A stretch of 64,000 nucleotides of DNA from NCBI GenBank assembly GCA_030530605.1, contig JAUMUO010000004.1, positions 14,631 to 78,630 of the forward strand. Reading direction: 5' to 3'. Origin of the DNA: Candidatus Saccharimonadota bacterium (GTDB taxonomy: Bacteria > Patescibacteriota > Saccharimonadia > Saccharimonadales > Saccharimonadaceae). The position numbers were made by a program, and so were the translations under genes. Of this stretch, positions 2,531 to 47,842 are shown one piece after another; positions within the stretch are counted from its first letter, which is position 1, and the number at the start of each line of letters is the position of its first letter. The notes under the pieces are model-generated. The model was not told the origin of the DNA. It saw only the letters and a program-made list of their open reading frames with translations, and did not search any database.

Positions 2531-4129
2531 ATGAAATTAATCGGGCTAGACGTCGGTACAAAGCGCATTGGTGTCGCGAGAGCAGATTCGAGCACTCGCA
2601 TCGCCCTGCCAGTTGGCACACTCGCTGTAGACGGCAAAGAATATGAAGTATTAAAAAAGTTGGCGGATAAACTAAATACCAAATACTTCGTAATTGGGCT
2701 CCCCCGTAACAATTCCGGCAAGGAGACCGCCCAGTCAGAGGTTGCTAAAAAATTTGGCAAGCAATTGGAAAATAGTGTCCCCGGTATTAAAATTCGCTTC
2801 CAAGATGAGTCCCTTACTAGTGTAGAAGCAGAGCAACGCTTAATGAAAAAGGTAAATAAAACTGGCAAAATGTACCAGAAAGGCGAAGTAGATGCCGAGG
2901 CTGCCACGATTATTTTACAGGATTTTTTAGAAACTCTGCCTTCAACCCACGCCGCCGCAGCTTCGCGTCCAGTCGTCGAATTAAAGAAACCTCGCCGTTC
3001 TAGTAAGAATAAAAAACTTGGTTTGAAAATTGCTATTGGTATAGCCGCTGGTGCTATTGCTCTCGGCGCTTTGCTCCTTATATGGTATAGTTCTAATCTC
3101 CGCCCAGTTTATGATTCTAAACTTTGTAAAACATCTTCCGCCGACGATCAGTGTAAGCCAGTCGACTTTACCGTTAAAACGGGCGAGCCGGTTGTAGACA
3201 TCGCCAACAACCTAGAATCTGCCGGTGTCATCAAGAGCTCTTTGGCTTTCCAGATTTATGCCAAACTAAATGGTAGCCAAGACAAAACCCCTAAGCCGGG
3301 CGACTATCAGCTCTCGCGTGCTTCTAGTGTAGAAGAAATTTTCAAACAGCTCGTGGAGGGTTCCAAGTCTGCCAACGTCTTCCAGCTCACCATCCTTCCT
3401 GGCGAAACCATCAAAGACATCAAGAATAAACTAAAAAATCTTGGCTACTCTGAGGAAGAAATCAACACAGCCTTTGCTAAGAATTATGACCACAAAGTCC
3501 TAGAGGGTAAAAAGGACACTTCTGCTTGGGGTGCCGAGCCGCTAGAGGGCTATATCTTTGGTGATACTTATGAGTTCTACATTGGCGAAAGTGTCGAAAA
3601 CATTATCCTTACCACGCTAGATAATCTCTGGGCTGCCGTTGAGGGCAACAATATCATTTCTAAACTTGGTGCTCATGATCTCTCGCTTTATGACGGTATC
3701 ACCCTTGCTTCCATCGTCCAAAAAGAGGCTCACACTTTAGACCAGCCTTATGTCGCGGAAGTCTTTTATAACCGTCTAAAAAACGGCATCCCGCTAGGTT
3801 CGGATGTCACGCTTACTTATGCGCTTAATCTGGTTGATCCAGACCGTAAAACTTATGCCTACAATGCGGATGCTCTTACCTTAGACCACCCATATAATAC
3901 TAGGAACGCCGTTTATACCGGCCTTACCCCCGGCCCGATTAGTAACCCGGGCATTTCCGCCCTACTCGCCGTGGCCGAGCCAAAGGAGCCAGAGGGTTTT
4001 GATGAGAATAGACGAGTATTCTATTTCTTGACAGGGGACGATGGCAAGATGTATTATAGTGACACAGAGGAAGGGCATAACCAGAATATCGCAAATCATT
4101 GTCAGGAGCTCTGTAACGTTAAGTTATGA
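2531..4129 (+). CDS. RuvX/YqgF nuclease fused to endolytic transglycosylase MltG
   Basis: N-term LIGLDVGTKRIGVA / VIGLP / QDESLTS / VDAEAATIILQ = YqgF; TM; C-term LEGYIFGDTY, ASIVQKE, GLTPGPISNPG, YFLTG = MltG/YceG. Confidence 0.85.
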   Translation: MKLIGLDVGTKRIGVARADSSTRIALPVGTLAVDGKEYEVLKKLADKLNTKYFVIGLPRNNSGKETAQSEVAKKFGKQLENSVPGIKIRFQDESLTSVEAEQRLMKKVNKTGKMYQKGEVDAEAATIILQDFLETLPSTHAAAASRPVVELKKPRRSSKNKKLGLKIAIGIAAGAIALGALLLIWYSSNLRPVYDSKLCKTSSADDQCKPVDFTVKTGEPVVDIANNLESAGVIKSSLAFQIYAKLNGSQDKTPKPGDYQLSRASSVEEIFKQLVEGSKSANVFQLTILPGETIKDIKNKLKNLGYSEEEINTAFAKNYDHKVLEGKKDTSAWGAEPLEGYIFGDTYEFYIGESVENIILTTLDNLWAAVEGNNIISKLGAHDLSLYDGITLASIVQKEAHTLDQPYVAEVFYNRLKNGIPLGSDVTLTYALNLVDPDRKTYAYNADALTLDHPYNTRNAVYTGLTPGPISNPGISALLAVAEPKEPEGFDENRRVFYFLTGDDGKMYYSDTEEGHNQNIANHCQELCNVKL

Positions 4130-5286
4130 CCAGAAGAAAACACGAAATAGGAAGATTTTTTAGTAAGTATTGGGCTTACTTGTTGTCTTTTGCTGTGATT
4201 GTCGCTGTGGCCTATTTCGGTTCTCGTGGCAAGGAGCCAATCTCTGATGATTCCACCAACATCCACGTGATTTTTTCTAATAATTATACGGTCACCGCCG
4301 ACCAGGTTTCCGAATTCTATGTCGTTTCAGAAATTGCCAATGCTATGCAATTTGTAAGCTCTAACGAAATTACCAACAACTACATTTCCGTGGCCTTGCT
4401 CCAAGAAACCAACCAAACTATCGACGATATCTCTGGTAAAATTAGCAAACCAACCATCGTGGATGTCTCGCATATTTCGCGTGGGGTCAAGAGCTATACT
4501 GTTCAGCCTGGAGAGACTTTGGATCAAATCGCTTCTCGCTTTGGCGTCAGCACCGACCAAATTCGCTGGTCTAATGGTATGGCTTCTAAAAATATCTCCG
4601 AAGGCCAAAGCCTTTATATCCCAACCGTTTCTGGTATTGCTGTTACCGTCAAGGACGATGACACTGTAGAATCGCTCGCCGACCACTACGGCGCTAAAGC
4701 CGCCGACATTATTTCTTATAATGACCTTGAGACCAACCAAAATCTCAAGGCTGGCCTAGTTATTCTTATCCCAAATGGCGTAATGCCAGAAACCGAGCGC
4801 CCAGAATACGTGGCCCCAGTGGTTGCCACTCCACAAGCCCCACAGACTTACACCTATACTTATCAGAACTACTCATATATTGGTTCTTCTGGTGGCCGCG
4901 AAAACCTTCGAATTGTCCAGCGCTTCTCCTATGCTGAATCCGTTGGTGATCCGGGCAACCGCAACACCCCGGGTCAGTGTACTTGGTATGCTTGGTACTA
5001 TCGCAAACACTATACTTCTAGTCCGCTTCCAGCCACCGTGCTCGGCAACGCCAACGCTTGGGCCTACTCGCTCTCTCGTATGGGCTTTGCCGTCAACAAT
5101 ACCCCGTCCGTGGGCGCCGTCTTCCAAACCACCTCCGGTTACTATGGCCACGTCGGTGTCGTTACATCGGTTAATAAAGACGGTTCCATCACCGTCCGCG
5201 AGATGAACTACAGCGGTATGGCCTTCACTGTCACCGAGTCCAACATTCCAAAGCAGTACGTCGGAATGTACAACTACATCCATTAA
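4126..5286 (+). CDS. LysM x2 + CHAP peptidoglycan hydrolase
   Basis: N-terminal TM; YTVQPGETLDQIASRFGVS and VKDDDTVESLADHYG LysM repeats; GQCTWYA (Cys), GYYGHV (His), REMN of CHAP. Confidence 0.88.
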   Translation: MTRRKHEIGRFFSKYWAYLLSFAVIVAVAYFGSRGKEPISDDSTNIHVIFSNNYTVTADQVSEFYVVSEIANAMQFVSSNEITNNYISVALLQETNQTIDDISGKISKPTIVDVSHISRGVKSYTVQPGETLDQIASRFGVSTDQIRWSNGMASKNISEGQSLYIPTVSGIAVTVKDDDTVESLADHYGAKAADIISYNDLETNQNLKAGLVILIPNGVMPETERPEYVAPVVATPQAPQTYTYTYQNYSYIGSSGGRENLRIVQRFSYAESVGDPGNRNTPGQCTWYAWYYRKHYTSSPLPATVLGNANAWAYSLSRMGFAVNNTPSVGAVFQTTSGYYGHVGVVTSVNKDGSITVREMNYSGMAFTVTESNIPKQYVGMYNYIH

Positions 5287-41952: not shown

Positions 41953-43245
41953 ATGCGTATTACCGCAAAATTTAAGAAGAAATTTTACTTCGTAGCTGCA
42001 GGGTATTTTCGCTTTTTTGCAAATCACGCTCTGAAGCGTTGGCACCCCCGTATTATCGCTATCACCGGCTCTGTCGGTAAAACTACGATGCTACACCTAG
42101 TAGAGACCCAGCTAAAAGACGAAGCGCACTATTCCCACGATGCGAACTCGGCCTTTGGTATCGCTTTTGACCTCGTGGATCTCCGAGGCGTCACCGGTTC
42201 TAAAGCCCGCTGGTTTTACCTGATTTTTGCCGTCCCCGTTAAATCGCTTTTTGTAAAGCATAAAGAGAAGTTTTATATTGTTGAGATTGATGGTGAGCGC
42301 CCCCACGAAACCGAATTCTTGGCTACCTGGCTAAAGCCCGAGATTACCCTTTGGGTCTCTCTCGGCCGCTCTCACGCCGTCCAATACGAGCAGCAGATTA
42401 GAGATGGTATCTTTGAGAACCTCGATAAAGCCATCACCCACGAGTTTGCCACTCTCCCGGAGAACACCAGAAAAGTCATCTATATCGACGGTGATGTTCC
42501 TCTAATGGTCAAAGCCACCGAAAAGATTCTCAAAAAAGGCAAAACAAAGGCCGATGTCATCAGATATTACAAAAAAGACCTCAAAAAATACGATGTCACC
42601 CCTGATAGCACCACCTTTGAATTAAAAAGCGGCCTAAAATTCAAGTTCGCTCAACCGATGCCAAAAGACATGGCTATCCAGCTTTTAATGCTAGAAGGCC
42701 TAATGGACTATCTTAAAATTAAGATTAACACCAACCTCACCAACATGGTGGTTGCCCCCGGTAGAAGCAGCTTCTTCGAGGGTAAAAACGGCCTTAAAAT
42801 TATTGATAGCTCCTATAATGCCCACCTTATCTCCGTCCAATCTATTCTTGAAATGAGCAAGGAGATGCCAGAGAAGAAAAAGTGGTACATCATCGGTGAT
42901 ATGGTAGAACAGGGCTTTATTGAGGGTGATGAGCACGCTAAGCTAGCGGATTTAATTGCTGACGCCAAGCCTACCAAGGTTCTCCTGGTTGGCCGCCGCA
43001 CCAAGAAATACACCTACCCAAGATTAAAGGAACTAAAAGTAGACGCAGAGACTTTCTCAGATGTCAGGCCGGCCCTGAAGTATATTGAACAAAATACCAA
43101 AGGCGACGAGGTTCTGATTTTCAAAGGTTCGCAATATCTAGAGTGGATTATTGAGAAATTATTAAAAAATCCCGCGGATGCCGAGAAATTGCCCCGTCGG
43201 GAGAAAGCAGCCACCAAGCGTCGCGAAAAAAGAGGGTTAAATTAA
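41953..43245 (+). CDS. Mur ligase family protein (MurF-like)
   Basis: IIAITGSVGKTT, IIDSSYNA, IGDMVEQG, FKGSQ. Confidence 0.85.
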   Translation: MRITAKFKKKFYFVAAGYFRFFANHALKRWHPRIIAITGSVGKTTMLHLVETQLKDEAHYSHDANSAFGIAFDLVDLRGVTGSKARWFYLIFAVPVKSLFVKHKEKFYIVEIDGERPHETEFLATWLKPEITLWVSLGRSHAVQYEQQIRDGIFENLDKAITHEFATLPENTRKVIYIDGDVPLMVKATEKILKKGKTKADVIRYYKKDLKKYDVTPDSTTFELKSGLKFKFAQPMPKDMAIQLLMLEGLMDYLKIKINTNLTNMVVAPGRSSFFEGKNGLKIIDSSYNAHLISVQSILEMSKEMPEKKKWYIIGDMVEQGFIEGDEHAKLADLIADAKPTKVLLVGRRTKKYTYPRLKELKVDAETFSDVRPALKYIEQNTKGDEVLIFKGSQYLEWIIEKLLKNPADAEKLPRREKAATKRREKRGLN

Positions 43246-43253
43246 GGAGGAAT

Positions 43254-43979
43254 ATGACCACGATTTATGTTATTCACGGCTGGACTTACACTGTAGAGCC
43301 CTGGAAGCGCACCATTGCCGAGCTAAAGGAAAAGGGTATAAAGATACAGATGTTAAATGTCCCTGGTCTTACCGCGCCTTCTAACAAGGTCTGGACGATA
43401 GAGGATTATGTCAAATGGGCAGACCGCAACATCCCTAAAGATGCCATTGTCTTAGGCCATAGTAACGGGGGTCGTATCCTTCTAAACCTCCTCTCTGAAA
43501 AGCCAGGCAAGGTTAAACACCTTATCTTGGTGGATGCCGCCGGCGTATACGAAGAAAGCAAGAAAAGGGACCTCAACCGTAAGGCCTCTAAAGTGTTCGC
43601 CCCCCTTAAAAAGGTCAAGCCTCTCCGGAAAGTCTATCATAAACTACTTGGGGCCTCTGATTACGACCGTGCCCCTGAGAATATGAAGCAAACCCTTTCA
43701 AATATGCTTGATTCCGACAAAAAATTAGATATTTCCAAGGTTACCACTCCTACTACTATCCTCTGGGGCCAAAAAGATACTACCACCCCGCCCCGCCAGG
43801 CCGAAAAGATGCACGAGCTTCTGCCAAACTCCACTTTAGATTTTTATGCCAACTGGAATCACGCCCCCTATATTTCGGATCCAGCCGGTTTTGCCAGGGC
43901 TATCGCGAAAACCGTCAAAAGTGTCACCAATGTCGACCCAAGCCGCTCGCTCGCCTCTAAAACTAAGGGGGTAATTTAG
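43254..43979 (+). CDS. Alpha/beta hydrolase
   Basis: IHGW, GHSNGG nucleophile elbow, WGQKD, NHAP. Confidence 0.9.
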   Translation: MTTIYVIHGWTYTVEPWKRTIAELKEKGIKIQMLNVPGLTAPSNKVWTIEDYVKWADRNIPKDAIVLGHSNGGRILLNLLSEKPGKVKHLILVDAAGVYEESKKRDLNRKASKVFAPLKKVKPLRKVYHKLLGASDYDRAPENMKQTLSNMLDSDKKLDISKVTTPTTILWGQKDTTTPPRQAEKMHELLPNSTLDFYANWNHAPYISDPAGFARAIAKTVKSVTNVDPSRSLASKTKGVI

Positions 43980-45770
43980 GTGTATTTCCTCGGTCAGGCC
44001 TCCACATACAAGTTTACAGATGTCATAAGGCATACTTTTTCATTTGGTACAAAAAGTAATCTCAACGAACTTCGGGCCTACCTCGCCGCTCACTACGGCA
44101 CCACTAAAGACCGAGTAGCAGTTTATCACAGCGGCCGTACCGGCCTAGCTATCGCCTTGGATCGCCTCGTCCCTAAAGAATCAGAGGTCATTGTCACCGC
44201 TTTAACCTGTTACGCTGTTTATGAAGCTGTCTCCGAGGCCGGCTGTATTCCAGCTTTTGCCGATATAGATAAAGACACTATCCATTTCGGTCCAAAAGAG
44301 TTGAAAACCGCTCTCGCTTTGCACCCAGACGCAAGAGCCGTAGTCGTTCAGAATAATCTCGGTATCCCTTGTGATATCAGAGGTATTGAAAAAATCTGTA
44401 AGAAATATGGCCTAGTTTTGATAGAAGATTTGGCACATTCCATGGGGATTCATTATAAAGACGGCCGTGAAGCTGGCACCATCGGAGATGCCGTAGTTCT
44501 ATCTTTTGGTAAAGGTAAAGCCATTGATACCATCTCTGGTGGCGCGGTAATTTTCACTAGTCCAGATTCTCCAACTATTTCCCAACCTTCCCGCCGCCCG
44601 CGCCTCTCGGACCGCCTCAGAGACCGCTGGTATCCGTTTTTTGGCCTTTTAATTCGCGGCTTCTATCATATTGGAAATCTTGGCCGTCTCTTCACCAGCT
44701 TTCTCTTGAAAATCCACTTTATCCAGCGTTCCGCCGATGCCGAGCTAGAACCTCTGGACCGCATCACCTTCTGGCAAGCCAAATTGGCCCTAAAACAGAT
44801 TAAAAAGATTCCTCGCTCCGGCAGAAAGCCGATTCGTGAGCCGTTCTTTGTGGATGATAGAGAATATTTACTGAAAGAATTAGAGCGAGGAGGCTTCGTC
44901 TTTGATGATATCTGGTACAGTTGCCCGGTTTCCCCTATTAGATACTACCGCCGGGTAAATTTCCCAGAAGAGGAGTGCCCGATGGCAATTTGGGCTGCCG
45001 AGCACCTAATAAATCTCCCCACCTGGTATTCTAAAAAAGATTTGAAGCCAGCTAGGAAGCTAATTGAGCGCTATATTGTAAAAGAGGAGGATATGCCGGA
45101 TCTCTCTTTGAAACTTACCCCAGAGGCCCCTGTAAAGGCCCCAAAAGAGCCATCTAAAAAACCCGTCAACATCTCCAAAGAACCTAAAAAGACCCCGCGA
45201 AAAGCTTCTGCTGCTCGCACCCCTGTAAAGTCCGATCTAGACTTCGCCCTCGCCGAACTCCAAGTCATGCCGGAAGAAGAGCTTTATGCCGAAGACGAGG
45301 AAGATGAGTATGATGATTATTATGGGCAGGCTGGTGACCTTCGCCGGGCTGTTGAAGGGTGGTCCGAAAATGGGGTCCCCCCTGAAGAAGCTTTTTCCGA
45401 AGGAAAAAGTTCTTTAGGGGTAAATTTTCGGGACAGGACCGTCCAAAGCCAGTGGCTTTGGACGGAAAGGCAAACTCGTGCGCGAATGCGCACGAGGAAA
45501 CTTACCCCGAAACACCCGCGCGGAACGAGCCAGTCTGCTATTCAAGCAGGGGACATCAATTATTCTGAAGTAGTCTATGACAAACTGAATAAAAAGCACT
45601 TAAACCGCACTAATATCATTGACAAAAATACCAACTCTGATGGCACTTCCGTTACCTTGACCAGGGAAGAACGTTTCCCAAAGAAACCCACCACCGACAA
45701 TCTCCCCAAAATCCGTCAATATAAGAAGCCTGAAAAAGGCCCAGAAACCACCGAGGGCAAAGTATGGTAA
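43980..45770 (+). CDS. DegT/DnrJ/EryC1/StrS aminotransferase family protein with ~230-aa C-terminal extension
   Basis: SGRTGL, IEDLAHS, LSFGKGKAID..GG; family domain ends near residue 365. Confidence 0.82.
   Translation: MYFLGQASTYKFTDVIRHTFSFGTKSNLNELRAYLAAHYGTTKDRVAVYHSGRTGLAIALDRLVPKESEVIVTALTCYAVYEAVSEAGCIPAFADIDKDTIHFGPKELKTALALHPDARAVVVQNNLGIPCDIRGIEKICKKYGLVLIEDLAHSMGIHYKDGREAGTIGDAVVLSFGKGKAIDTISGGAVIFTSPDSPTISQPSRRPRLSDRLRDRWYPFFGLLIRGFYHIGNLGRLFTSFLLKIHFIQRSADAELEPLDRITFWQAKLALKQIKKIPRSGRKPIREPFFVDDREYLLKELERGGFVFDDIWYSCPVSPIRYYRRVNFPEEECPMAIWAAEHLINLPTWYSKKDLKPARKLIERYIVKEEDMPDLSLKLTPEAPVKAPKEPSKKPVNISKEPKKTPRKASAARTPVKSDLDFALAELQVMPEEELYAEDEEDEYDDYYGQAGDLRRAVEGWSENGVPPEEAFSEGKSSLGVNFRDRTVQSQWLWTERQTRARMRTRKLTPKHPRGTSQSAIQAGDINYSEVVYDKLNKKHLNRTNIIDKNTNSDGTSVTLTREERFPKKPTTDNLPKIRQYKKPEKGPETTEGKVW
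45320..45557. repeat. Multi-hairpin palindromic segment inside the DegT-like gene
   Basis: Perfect stems 45439-50/45454-65 (12 bp), 45475-83/45488-96 (9 bp), 45391-98/45402-09 (8 bp), 45417-23/45502-08; closing stem 45325-35/45529-39. Confidence 0.85.
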
Positions 45771-46795
45771 ACACCATCACAAAGCAGGATTTGCTCGTCG
45801 TCTGGGACGAAAACATCAAAAAATACCACGCTGAAGCTAATTTTCTTCAGTCCTCCTTCTGGTGTCTCACTAACGAAGCTGTTGGTCATAAGGCTATCGC
45901 CCTAGATTTTGACGCCGGCAAATGTGCCGCGCTTTGTATTATTAAAGCTGCCCGGCGTGGCCGTTATCTTGAGGTCCCGGGTGGTCCGTTAATTGACTGG
46001 TCCGACAAAAACTCCGTTGCCGAGATGATGGGAGAGCTAAAGAAGGCCGCCAAAGCCAACAAATGTGCCTTTGTTCGTCTCCGCCCCCAGCTCCTAAATA
46101 CCTCTGGAAATCTCAAATTGCTAAAAAATTTAGGCTTAAAACCCTCCCCGATGCATCTTCATGCCGAGCACACCGTGATTATAGACCTCAAAAAATCAGA
46201 AAATGAGCTACTTGGCGATATGCGCCGCCAAACCCGTTACGAGGTCCGTCGCGCCGAGAAATTAAAGCTCAAAGTAGACAGCCTTTCTGCCGACAATAAA
46301 CATTTCAAGGAGCTGCTTGATGAATTTTACAAAACCCAACAACAGACTGCCTCGCGCCAGCACTTCATCCCGCCTAGCAAGAAAGATCTTGAAGCCGAAT
46401 GTGGCGCTTTCGGCAAAAATGCCAGCCTTTATGTCGCCCGCACCGAAGAGGGTGAGCCAGTAGCCTACGGCTTAATCTTAAAATATGGCAAGGAAGCGGA
46501 TTATTTTGAGGCTGCCAGCACCGACCTAAATCGCAAACTCCCTGGAGCCTACGCTCTACTCTGGCAAGCTATGAAGGACCTAAAAGCCGAGGGTTATGAA
46601 CGTTTTAACCTCTGGGGTATCGCTCCAGCCGGCCAACCTAACCACCGCTATGCCAAAGTTACCACCTTCAAAACCGGCTTTGGTGGCGAAATTGTCAATT
46701 TCGTTCCTGCCCACGACCTAGTCATCTCCAAAGTCAAATACCTTCCCGACCTTTTAATCGAAACCGCCAGGAAACACCACCGCCACTTGGGCTAG
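45764..46795 (+). CDS. FemABX family peptidoglycan peptidyltransferase
   Basis: ANFLQSSFW, GGPLIDW, RRQTRYEVRRA, FNLWGI, FKTGFGG. Confidence 0.9.
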   Translation: MVNTITKQDLLVVWDENIKKYHAEANFLQSSFWCLTNEAVGHKAIALDFDAGKCAALCIIKAARRGRYLEVPGGPLIDWSDKNSVAEMMGELKKAAKANKCAFVRLRPQLLNTSGNLKLLKNLGLKPSPMHLHAEHTVIIDLKKSENELLGDMRRQTRYEVRRAEKLKLKVDSLSADNKHFKELLDEFYKTQQQTASRQHFIPPSKKDLEAECGAFGKNASLYVARTEEGEPVAYGLILKYGKEADYFEAASTDLNRKLPGAYALLWQAMKDLKAEGYERFNLWGIAPAGQPNHRYAKVTTFKTGFGGEIVNFVPAHDLVISKVKYLPDLLIETARKHHRHLG

Positions 46796-46813
46796 ACGTG
46801 GTATAATTAAATT

Positions 46814-47842
46814 ATGTCGAAGTATACTTTTGAAGATTGTAATGATAAAAAGCTTTGGGATGATTTTGTCACCAGTTTTCCAGAGGCAAATTTCCTTCAA
46901 TCTTTTGATTTCTATGAATTTCACAAGAGCCGTGGCAACGAGATTGTCCGCCGTCTAGCTAAGGACGGCGATAAAATTGTCGCAGCCTATGCCGGGGTAG
47001 TTGAGCACGCAAAACGCGGTCGTCACCTGGCGATTGCTGGTGGCCCGATTCTAGACTGGAAAAATAAATCGCTTAGAGATGCGGTATTTGAAGATATTAA
47101 AGAGGGTGGCAAGAAGAATAACTGTGTCTTTGTCCGTATCCGTCCACAACTAGAGCTCTCCGATAAATCCCTAGCCCTGTTTGAAAAAGAACTAAAAACC
47201 AAAAAAGCTCCAATGTATCTTTCGGTGGAGTTCGCCGGAATACTAGATTTGACCAAATCCGAAGATGAAATTTTAGCCGGTATGCGCCAGAGATTGCGCC
47301 GGGCCCTTAGAAAAGCCGCCAAGAATAATATCACTGTCGAAAAGTCCACCGACCCCAAAGATATCAAGACTTTTTATGATATCCAGCTCCAGACCGCAAA
47401 AAGACACGATTTCTTTGCCTTCTCGGAGGATTTTCTAACTAAACAATTTGCCGCTTTCGCCCCTAATGGCGAGGCCGTGCTTTACACTGCTAAATATAAC
47501 GGCGAAATTCTAGCCCAAAACTTTATGATTTTCTACGGCAACGAGGCCTCTTATCACTATGGCGTTTCGTCCGAGCTTGGCACTAAACTCTCCGGCGCTC
47601 CACTGCTTCATATGGAGGCGATGCGAGATGCTAGGGAACGTGGAATTAACAGATATAATTTCTGGGGCATTGTGGACGAAGATGATACTAAACACCGCTT
47701 CTATGGGGTGTCCTGCTTCAAGCGCGGCTTTGGGGTGACCGAGCTAAAATACGTCCCGGCCCACGATTTAATCTTAAAACCAGCTGCCTACAGAAAGACT
47801 TTGGCTATTGAGACTCTCCGCCGCCATCTCCGCCACGTCTAA
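46814..47842 (+). CDS. FemABX family peptidoglycan peptidyltransferase (second paralog)
   Basis: ANFLQSFDF, GGPILDW, YHYG.S, YNFWGI, FKRGFG. Confidence 0.9.
   Translation: MSKYTFEDCNDKKLWDDFVTSFPEANFLQSFDFYEFHKSRGNEIVRRLAKDGDKIVAAYAGVVEHAKRGRHLAIAGGPILDWKNKSLRDAVFEDIKEGGKKNNCVFVRIRPQLELSDKSLALFEKELKTKKAPMYLSVEFAGILDLTKSEDEILAGMRQRLRRALRKAAKNNITVEKSTDPKDIKTFYDIQLQTAKRHDFFAFSEDFLTKQFAAFAPNGEAVLYTAKYNGEILAQNFMIFYGNEASYHYGVSSELGTKLSGAPLLHMEAMRDARERGINRYNFWGIVDEDDTKHRFYGVSCFKRGFGVTELKYVPAHDLILKPAAYRKTLAIETLRRHLRHV

Follow-up and report, generated by a model that had tools for sequence, protein, structure and literature searches.

The stretch of DNA analysed here (the window) comprises 64,000 nucleotides of a Candidatus Saccharimonadota bacterium genome (GCA_030530605.1, contig JAUMUO010000004.1, positions 14,631 to 78,630 of the forward strand). 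The assembly of this genome (G000) has 677,640 bases in 10 contigs and is rated 95.7% complete. An open reading frame (ORF) of 596 aa in the window encodes a DegT-like aminotransferase followed by a tail of 230 aa, and the tail is split by a composite repeat made of two hairpin-forming sequences, one nested in the other. The initial annotation of the locus had described a DegT-like aminotransferase with a tail of approximately 230 aa, in agreement with the ORF length and the Pfam domain found here. The features of the locus, with positions in the window, are the following.

43980..45770, plus strand: whole ORF (596 aa), DegT-like aminotransferase and apparently native tail, split by the composite repeat
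43980..45074, plus strand: conserved enzyme part, DegT/DnrJ/EryC1 family, aa 1 to approximately 365 (Pfam, alignment and AlphaFold2)
45075..45325, plus strand: hypervariable linker of the tail, K/P-rich and then D/E-rich, varying among 19 relatives
45326..45437, plus strand: outer element, 5′ arm, apical hairpin and start of the 3′ arm, opening with a 9-nt terminal inverted repeat
45438..45503, plus strand: inner two-hairpin module (66 nt, codons 487 to 508), flanked by ACC (45438-45440 and 45504-45506) and equally placeable at 45441-45506
45504..45538, plus strand: outer element, remaining 3′ arm to the terminal inverted repeat
45546..45767, plus strand: conserved C-terminal module of the tail, aa 523 to 596, in all 19 aligned sequences
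45764..46795, plus strand: downstream FemAB-family gene, its start overlapping the stop of the DegT-like ORF (Pfam FemAB, E 1.9e-35)

The structured unit formed by the two repeats spans 45326-45538. It contains perfect 13-nt arms at 45439-45451 and 45453-45465 (effectively 12 bp with a 3-nt loop), a perfect 9-bp hairpin (45475-45483/45488-45496), a perfect 8-bp hairpin (45391-45398/45402-45409), a long-range perfect 8-bp stem (45364-45371/45424-45431), and a pair of 15-nt arms that are 87% matched (45413-45427/45498-45512). The perfect 12-, 9-, and 8-bp hairpins nested in longer stems that the initial annotation had listed were all located, and its structured segment proved to be real, with the bounds corrected from 45320-45557 to those given above. 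The fold predicted for 45300-45580 had an energy of −124.6 kcal/mol versus −86.1 ± 4.5 kcal/mol in 200 dinucleotide shuffles. The z score was −8.51 for the plus strand, where none of the 200 shuffles was as good, and −6.42 for the minus strand, so that the stability of this fold is far above chance. No Rfam 15 family matched at E ≤ 1 across 43000-47500 save a chance miRNA match elsewhere, and at the Rfam gathering threshold the whole window yielded one tRNA only; the Rfam check suggested in the initial annotation thus returned no curated covariance model for the segment.

To place the structured unit within its host protein, the enzyme part and the tail were compared with related sequences. 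The Pfam profile DegT_DnrJ_EryC1 (PF01041) matched aa 26-196 only (E 6e-34, 118.3 bits vs. a cut-off of 19.8), covering just positions 24-190 of the 360 in the profile, and by this profile the protein can be assigned to the DegT/DnrJ/EryC1 family. The remainder of the enzyme part is kept among relatives, and conservation ends near aa 365 (~45074) in an alignment of 19 sequences. An AlphaFold2 prediction run with this 19-sequence alignment gave a predicted local distance difference test (pLDDT) score mostly of 65-93 across aa 21-370, with dips to approximately 46-57, and a score below 50 for nearly all of aa 380-596. Beyond aa ~365 the sequence is rich in K/P and then in D/E, as had been noted initially, and this linker varies in both length and sequence among the 19 relatives. 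The C-terminal module of 73 aa has many invariant columns and is common to all 19 aligned Saccharibacteria DegT-like proteins; the 18 proteins related to that of the window consist, as it does, of an enzyme part, a variable linker, and this module. Its last residues are invariant at the very point where the femAB start overlaps: the femAB ATG (45764-45766) overlaps the TAA of the DegT-like ORF (45768-45770) within 45764-45770, and the ORF stays open into the next femABX gene, as had been proposed. The module had no Pfam match and low AlphaFold2 confidence.

The outer element was found in only 2 of the 19 aligned sequences, the window protein and the database protein P0002. The closest species-level ortholog, from genome G020 (530 aa), does not have it: this protein is 67% identical to aa 1-443 and 73% identical to aa 523-596 of the window protein, and its residues 454-456 bridge the site where the window ORF has aa 444-522. 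DegT-like homologs were present in 38 of 41 same-genus genomes, with open frames of 346 to 745 aa, and this comparison of ortholog lengths, together with the C-terminal module common to all 19 proteins, bears out a tail that belongs to the family. The initial annotation had also considered that the tail might result from a stop lost near 45070. Contigs assembled from four public runs of two studies (X1 to X4) cover 44900-45437 without an indel and with no listed base difference near 45070, and the tail is kept in the 18 relatives; a lost stop did not hold up, and judging from these sequences the tail is native rather than an artefact. An in-frame GAGGAGG (45084-45090), which is strongly Shine-Dalgarno-like, and an ATG (45093-45095) stand just past the enzyme domain; this motif is not conserved in the G020 ortholog. 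By its sequence, this ATG could also allow separate translation of the tail.

The boundaries of the inner module were given by sequences that are empty at this site. P0002 is without exactly the 22 residues encoded by 45438-45503. In contigs of runs X3 and X4, 45437 is followed directly by 45504, with 66 nt missing; the ACC at both ends of the module leaves the join ambiguous by 3 nt. Run X2 shows an almost identical empty form that contains four other letters. The insert opens at codon 487, on a codon boundary, and comprises 22 codons. None of the contigs of X1 to X4 bridges the filled junctions, and the filled allele is thus known from this assembly alone. Because the inner module is repeated in the genome, a chimeric join through repeats might in principle have produced the nested copy or the tail, as might a lost stop, and another database protein, P0024 (described below), does look like a chimera made at the outer element. 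An assembly artefact is nevertheless very improbable. The tail and the outer element are both confirmed by independent contigs as well as by P0002, and a chimeric origin of the filled module is unlikely because the stem of its first hairpin has no separate BLAST match in its own genome and the two junctions have only ACC in common, which we infer to be too short for a k-mer chimera.

Once the nested piece is removed, the outer element is 147 nt long (49 codons). A search with the tail retrieved P0002 (574 aa), which is 87% identical along the whole tail, and also proteins of different families that have only approximately 50 residues in common with it. When the 49-residue peptide was used as the query, 14 protein clusters of approximately 12 unrelated families were found to carry it in frame: DnaX-like proteins, PheT, an amidase, a UvrD-like helicase, a translational GTPase, DegT (P0002), ArgRS, Der (at two different sites), MnmA, TatD, a PF03602 methyltransferase-like protein, and a GT4 glycosyltransferase. 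Five copies were compared as DNA, namely that of the window, those in the Der and GT4 genes of genome G509, and those in the PheT gene and in an intergenic region of genome G510. They measure 142-147 nt and have conserved 9-nt terminal inverted repeats, which pair in all five (helix 1, 100% of cells paired). Each of the four copies outside the window folds as a single long, imperfect hairpin (z −6.0 to −8.1). Across the alignment of the five copies, 87% of cells were paired and 16 of 56 pairs were compensatory, a result that none of 500 shuffles reached. The Der and PheT orthologs in G000 are without the element.

A covariance model of the outer element (R2) was used to search four genomes. 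It gave seven matches in G020, six in G509, and four in G510, counts that include reverse-strand echoes and duplicate contigs, and some of the copies belong to divergent subfamilies. Matches at E ≤ 1e-6 under stricter filters were present in 6 of 151 same-genus genomes drawn, and the peptide was present in 3 of 369 genomes of the genus. A search of the JGI metagenomes with the 49-aa peptide gave 597 pattern matches, none of which was confirmed, and BLAST of a 261-nt segment against 400 other genomes of the family gave no match in what is an insensitive comparison with two candidates scored per genome.

The same peptide in the same frame in 14 clusters could be taken to mean that the 49 residues are a shuffled mini-domain or linear motif selected as a peptide, the DNA palindrome being incidental, and a search with the reverse-frame peptide was empty. 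The DNA copies make this a very unlikely explanation. The intergenic copy in G510, which lies between an ORF of unknown function and pilM and is oriented against both, carries a stop, TGA, in the usual frame. A spanning ORF of at least 100 aa is missing from another four copies, examined in G020 and G509 (two of the four lie near contig ends). Divergent copies are only 47-49% identical in peptide, with the pairing kept through compensatory changes, and one variant reads its 3′ end in a different frame. In addition, the AlphaFold2 confidence of the segment is below 50, and a helicase ORF contains a candidate copy in antisense orientation.

This candidate and one other sequence are further traces of the outer element in G000. 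The linker of a dnaX-like gene contains 35 nt (C1:8991-9025, minus strand) that read in the same frame as 45504-45538 and are 91% identical to it, and a database DnaX (P0022) has a full outer element at the matching place; the comparison suggests that the dnaX-like remnant is an old insertion that has mostly been deleted since. A weak R2 match (42 bits) runs antisense in a UvrD-like helicase gene (C4:50331-50473). The short motif ahead of its insertion point recurs in P0024, where a canonical element stands in sense orientation, and 12 of 12 same-genus relatives are without roughly 30-40 residues at this site. It is kept as a candidate second copy, and the size of the missing piece fits a 143-nt insert poorly.

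P0024, an ENA-derived protein of 555 aa, has the N-terminal part of a UvrD-like helicase and the anticodon-binding C-terminal part of an ArgRS, joined exactly at the outer element. Its ArgRS part is nearly identical to P0027, and it is probably an assembly chimera or the product of recombination across the repeat.

The inner module has a different distribution. A covariance model (R1) built from nine copies matched 45438-45508 in the window with 93.6 bits and gave nine strong matches in G000 (E 5e-21 to 2e-14); the ten further matches listed were weak or reverse-strand echoes. The module folds into a 12-bp hairpin joined to a 9-bp hairpin, followed by conserved single-stranded stretches. The two hairpins are unlike each other, and the lower stem of the first differs in every copy. 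Its alignment had 96% of cells paired and 10 of 21 pairs compensatory (9 of 12 in the first hairpin), again reached by none of 500 shuffles, and all three forward frames of the module are open. By eye, the 5′ arm of the first hairpin seems to resemble the downstream flank in several copies. The initial annotation had named a single-copy element without structural covariation as the outcome that would speak against it; with nine copies of the inner module, the outer element in unrelated genes and genomes, and covariation in both, the repeats are of the opposite kind.

The inner module is non-randomly fused to the ACCA at the 3′ end of tRNAs. For five of the nine G000 copies there is an overlap with the terminal ACCA (4 nt) of a called tRNA gene (Pro-tgg, Pro-ggg, Arg-ccg, Val-gac, and Met-cat); another copy stands behind what resembles the remnant of a tRNA acceptor, after tRNA-Ile. 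Fusions of the module to tRNA ACCA ends were recorded at C9:22355-22425, C9:10551-10622, C9:25958-26028, C7:25375-25446, C7:73713-73783, and C4:160069-160140. A degenerate pattern of the module found 20 stretches in species-representative genomes, and 19 of the 20 records bear the name uncultured Candidatus Saccharibacteria bacterium, many from ruminant gut. When the window's own match, one duplicate locus, and seven weak matches were subtracted from 30 R1 matches, 21 strong matches in other Saccharibacteria records remained, and 11 of these share 4 nt with the 3′ end of a called tRNA. Other copies come after partial tRNA 3′ duplicates or in tandem arrays with a 66-nt period: partial 3′-half duplicates adjoin the module at L048, L051, and C4:160032-160068, and tandem or composite arrays were found at L035, L045, L049, and C4:117285-117420. 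The set of tRNAs that carry the module differs among genomes (loci L036 to L053). Among 36 sampled same-genus genomes, one (G020) had the module, in one copy; it was absent from all 24 genomes taken from the order's other families. A copy at a tRNA-Ile/tRNA-Ala locus, considered at one point to lie in an rRNA spacer, was dropped from that class as there is no rRNA at the locus. The preference for tRNA ends is the most novel part of these observations and an unexplained regularity.

A functional RNA was also considered. The composite repeat could be a cis-acting processing, stability, or pausing signal between the DegT-like gene and the coupled femAB, with the inner module as a reused tRNA-trailer motif. 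The fold is very stable and stronger on the sense strand, both elements covary, all intragenic copies detected by peptide are oriented as their host genes, and the fusion of the module to tRNA 3′ ends in several genomes could reflect maturation of the tRNA transcript. However, G020, 17 other relatives, and the empty contigs of X3 and X4 do without one or both elements and keep the tail and the gene overlap. The host genes of the outer element are functionally unrelated, the tRNAs that bear the module differ by genome, only the one same-genus genome in the sample of 36 has any copy, and no Rfam family matches. A cis-acting RNA is distinctly unlikely on this evidence. The view of the initial annotation, a structured RNA or REP/PATE-type element captured in frame, is supported as to in-frame, multi-copy elements, of which there are two; the captured functional RNA was a part of that view not upheld.

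We favour the reading that two selfish palindromic elements, one inside the other, were inserted and tolerated in a disordered linker of a native tail, and we give it a probability of approximately 0.78. It starts from the insertions and their boundaries, the multi-copy status, the unrelated host genes, the covariation, and the presence/absence polymorphism described above. The 147-nt palindromic element would have landed first in the linker, in a lineage to which both this genome and the source of P0002 belong, and the 66-nt two-hairpin module would have landed later at an ACC inside the outer 3′ arm. Both inserts are multiples of three and stop-free in the frame used, adding 49 and 22 residues, so that translation would run through to the C-terminal module and the overlap with the femAB start. 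The elements would be selfish and tolerated rather than useful, and would spread at the DNA level, possibly through RNA. Only in-frame, stop-free insertions in permissive loops would survive selection, and the intragenic copies that remain would be those that keep the frame in permissive, disordered, or surface regions.

Several results weigh against this reading, the unbridged filled junctions of the inner module among them. The covariation of the outer element comes from five DNA copies, and G000 holds one full copy, one 35-nt remnant, and one weak candidate. Every protein-embedded copy from the peptide search is in one orientation and frame, a pattern that also fits selection on the peptide or a role at the RNA level; the reverse-frame search that found nothing is a weak one, since long proteins displace relatives in its results. 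For the outer element, a target-site duplication could not be defined: the flanks of the five copies show no consistent duplication, and the filled Der and PheT sites were compared with empty sites from diverged species. Few genes for mobility were found. Y1_Tnp (PF01797), TnpB, DDE_Tnp_1, and Phage_integrase had no match in G000, and the searches of this genome gave one rve fragment and three reverse transcriptases of ~381 aa. The PF01797 search, with 0 matches in G000, was positive in 6 of 14 reference genomes used as a control. The Phage_integrase profile (PF00589, tyrosine recombinases) had its negative result in G000 at E ≤ 0.01 and was positive in 14 of 14 reference genomes, which suggests that G000 is without a XerC/D-type recombinase or has a very divergent one. 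With no match to these transposase and recombinase families, mobility is inferred from distribution and not from machinery.

The reverse transcriptases were considered as mobilisers and set aside, since at least one belongs to a diversity-generating retroelement (DGR) and no link to the repeats was shown. This retroelement (L063, C2:65500-70500) has a reverse transcriptase of 381 aa at 1760-2905 and two repeats at 2959-3218 and 4180-4439. The repeats are 260 nt long and 93% identical, and their 19 differences all fall at T of the copy proximal to the reverse transcriptase; differences at T only (A on the other strand) read as the adenine-specific signature of a DGR. The distal repeat overlaps the 3′ end of a minus-strand ORF of 208 aa. 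Two paralogous reverse transcriptases, on C5 and C4, each follow an unannotated ORF of 320-334 aa, and no repeat pair was found at either locus. The three enzymes are more likely DGR enzymes.

The genes around the DegT-like ORF are a Mur-ligase-like gene, an alpha/beta hydrolase gene, and two FemAB genes, neighbours that indicate a cell-wall locus.

In-frame selfish palindromes are a textbook oddity of Rickettsia. [quoted passage not shown] The outer element is likewise a long hairpin, of 142-147 nt, found in frame in unrelated genes and absent from their orthologs. As far as that review describes them, RPEs share with it a palindrome of ~150 nt in frame in unrelated housekeeping genes, a reduced genome, a conserved peptide, the lack of a known transposase partner, and a host protein that tolerates the insert. 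The elements here, in contrast, belong to Saccharibacteria/Patescibacteria, another phylum, and the likeness is one of kind, with no homology claimed; their copy number is low (1-7 matches in the four genomes searched with R2), and a second, unrelated repeat is nested in the first with both in frame. The RPE type thus appears to be the closest analogue of the in-frame insertions, and orphan RPE-like selfish palindromes are the form of the reading that we favour.

Other known systems agree less well. The outer element has the terminal inverted repeats of a MITE, and QMITE1 of Coxiella, ERIC, and BOX, as treated in the same review (PMC10969869), are also small, of non-coding origin, and prone to ORF fusion, whereas here a target-site duplication could not be defined and the searches of G000 gave neither a parent insertion sequence (IS) nor a related autonomous IS or transposase. 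Repetitive extragenic palindromic (REP) sequences are described as 20-40 nt with GTAG/CGTC tags in PMC3733652. The REP/REPIN-RAYT elements and the IS200/IS605-derived palindrome-associated transposable elements (PATEs) resemble the present repeats as hairpin-forming repeats. They differ in that G000 has no Y1 (HUH) transposase or TnpB gene and in that the two hairpins of the module are dissimilar. The REP/PATE label of the initial annotation was apt for a hairpin repeat, and the tests run did not identify a REP or an IS200/IS605-derived PATE.

Insertion of IS200/IS605 elements takes place 3′ of a short target, which is not duplicated. The inner module is similar in that the short word at its right end, ACC, is also that of the target on its left, and its ACC target and its own ACC(A) end may point to insertion 3′ of a target without true duplication or to a process dependent on the CCA end. 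It also resembles the integrative and retro-elements of tRNA ends, as it abuts the tRNA ACCA and ends in ACC(A), so that the tRNA end is regenerated downstream, and as partial duplicates of the tRNA 3′ half stand beside it at some loci. Unlike those elements, it is only 66-72 nt long, encodes nothing, and forms tandem arrays, and no integrase was found in G000. A bolder proposal, which we hold to be unlikely though less so than a cis-acting RNA, is that the module is a minimal mobile element: it would target tRNA ACC(A) ends and occasionally any ACC, carry its own ACC(A) end, form next to the target a hairpin with a lower stem that is different in each copy, and amplify in tandem. It might move via an RNA intermediate primed at a CCA end, in a genome with three reverse transcriptases and, of the four transposase and recombinase families searched for, no match, the one rve fragment aside. 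If this were true, the module and the outer element together would show that the ultra-small genomes of Patescibacteria, like those of Rickettsia, are reshaped by selfish hairpins, which lengthen essential proteins.

Among the papers listed by full-text searches that covered Saccharibacteria, Patescibacteria, CPR, TM7, and repeats downstream of tRNA genes, with most subscription journals outside the search, none reported elements of this kind for the group. The finding is best classed with the in-frame selfish palindromes, here in a new phylum and with a second insertion that is nested and polymorphic. Their occurrence in Saccharibacteria points to something that follows generally from genome reduction or from dependence on a host. 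The nested double insertion is still polymorphic in gut populations, and copies lie in genes of translation and replication, including those for PheT, ArgRS, DnaX, Der, and MnmA. Such repeats inflate ORFs, create chimeric metagenome contigs and proteins (P0024 is a probable case), and can mimic novel domains or RNA genes.

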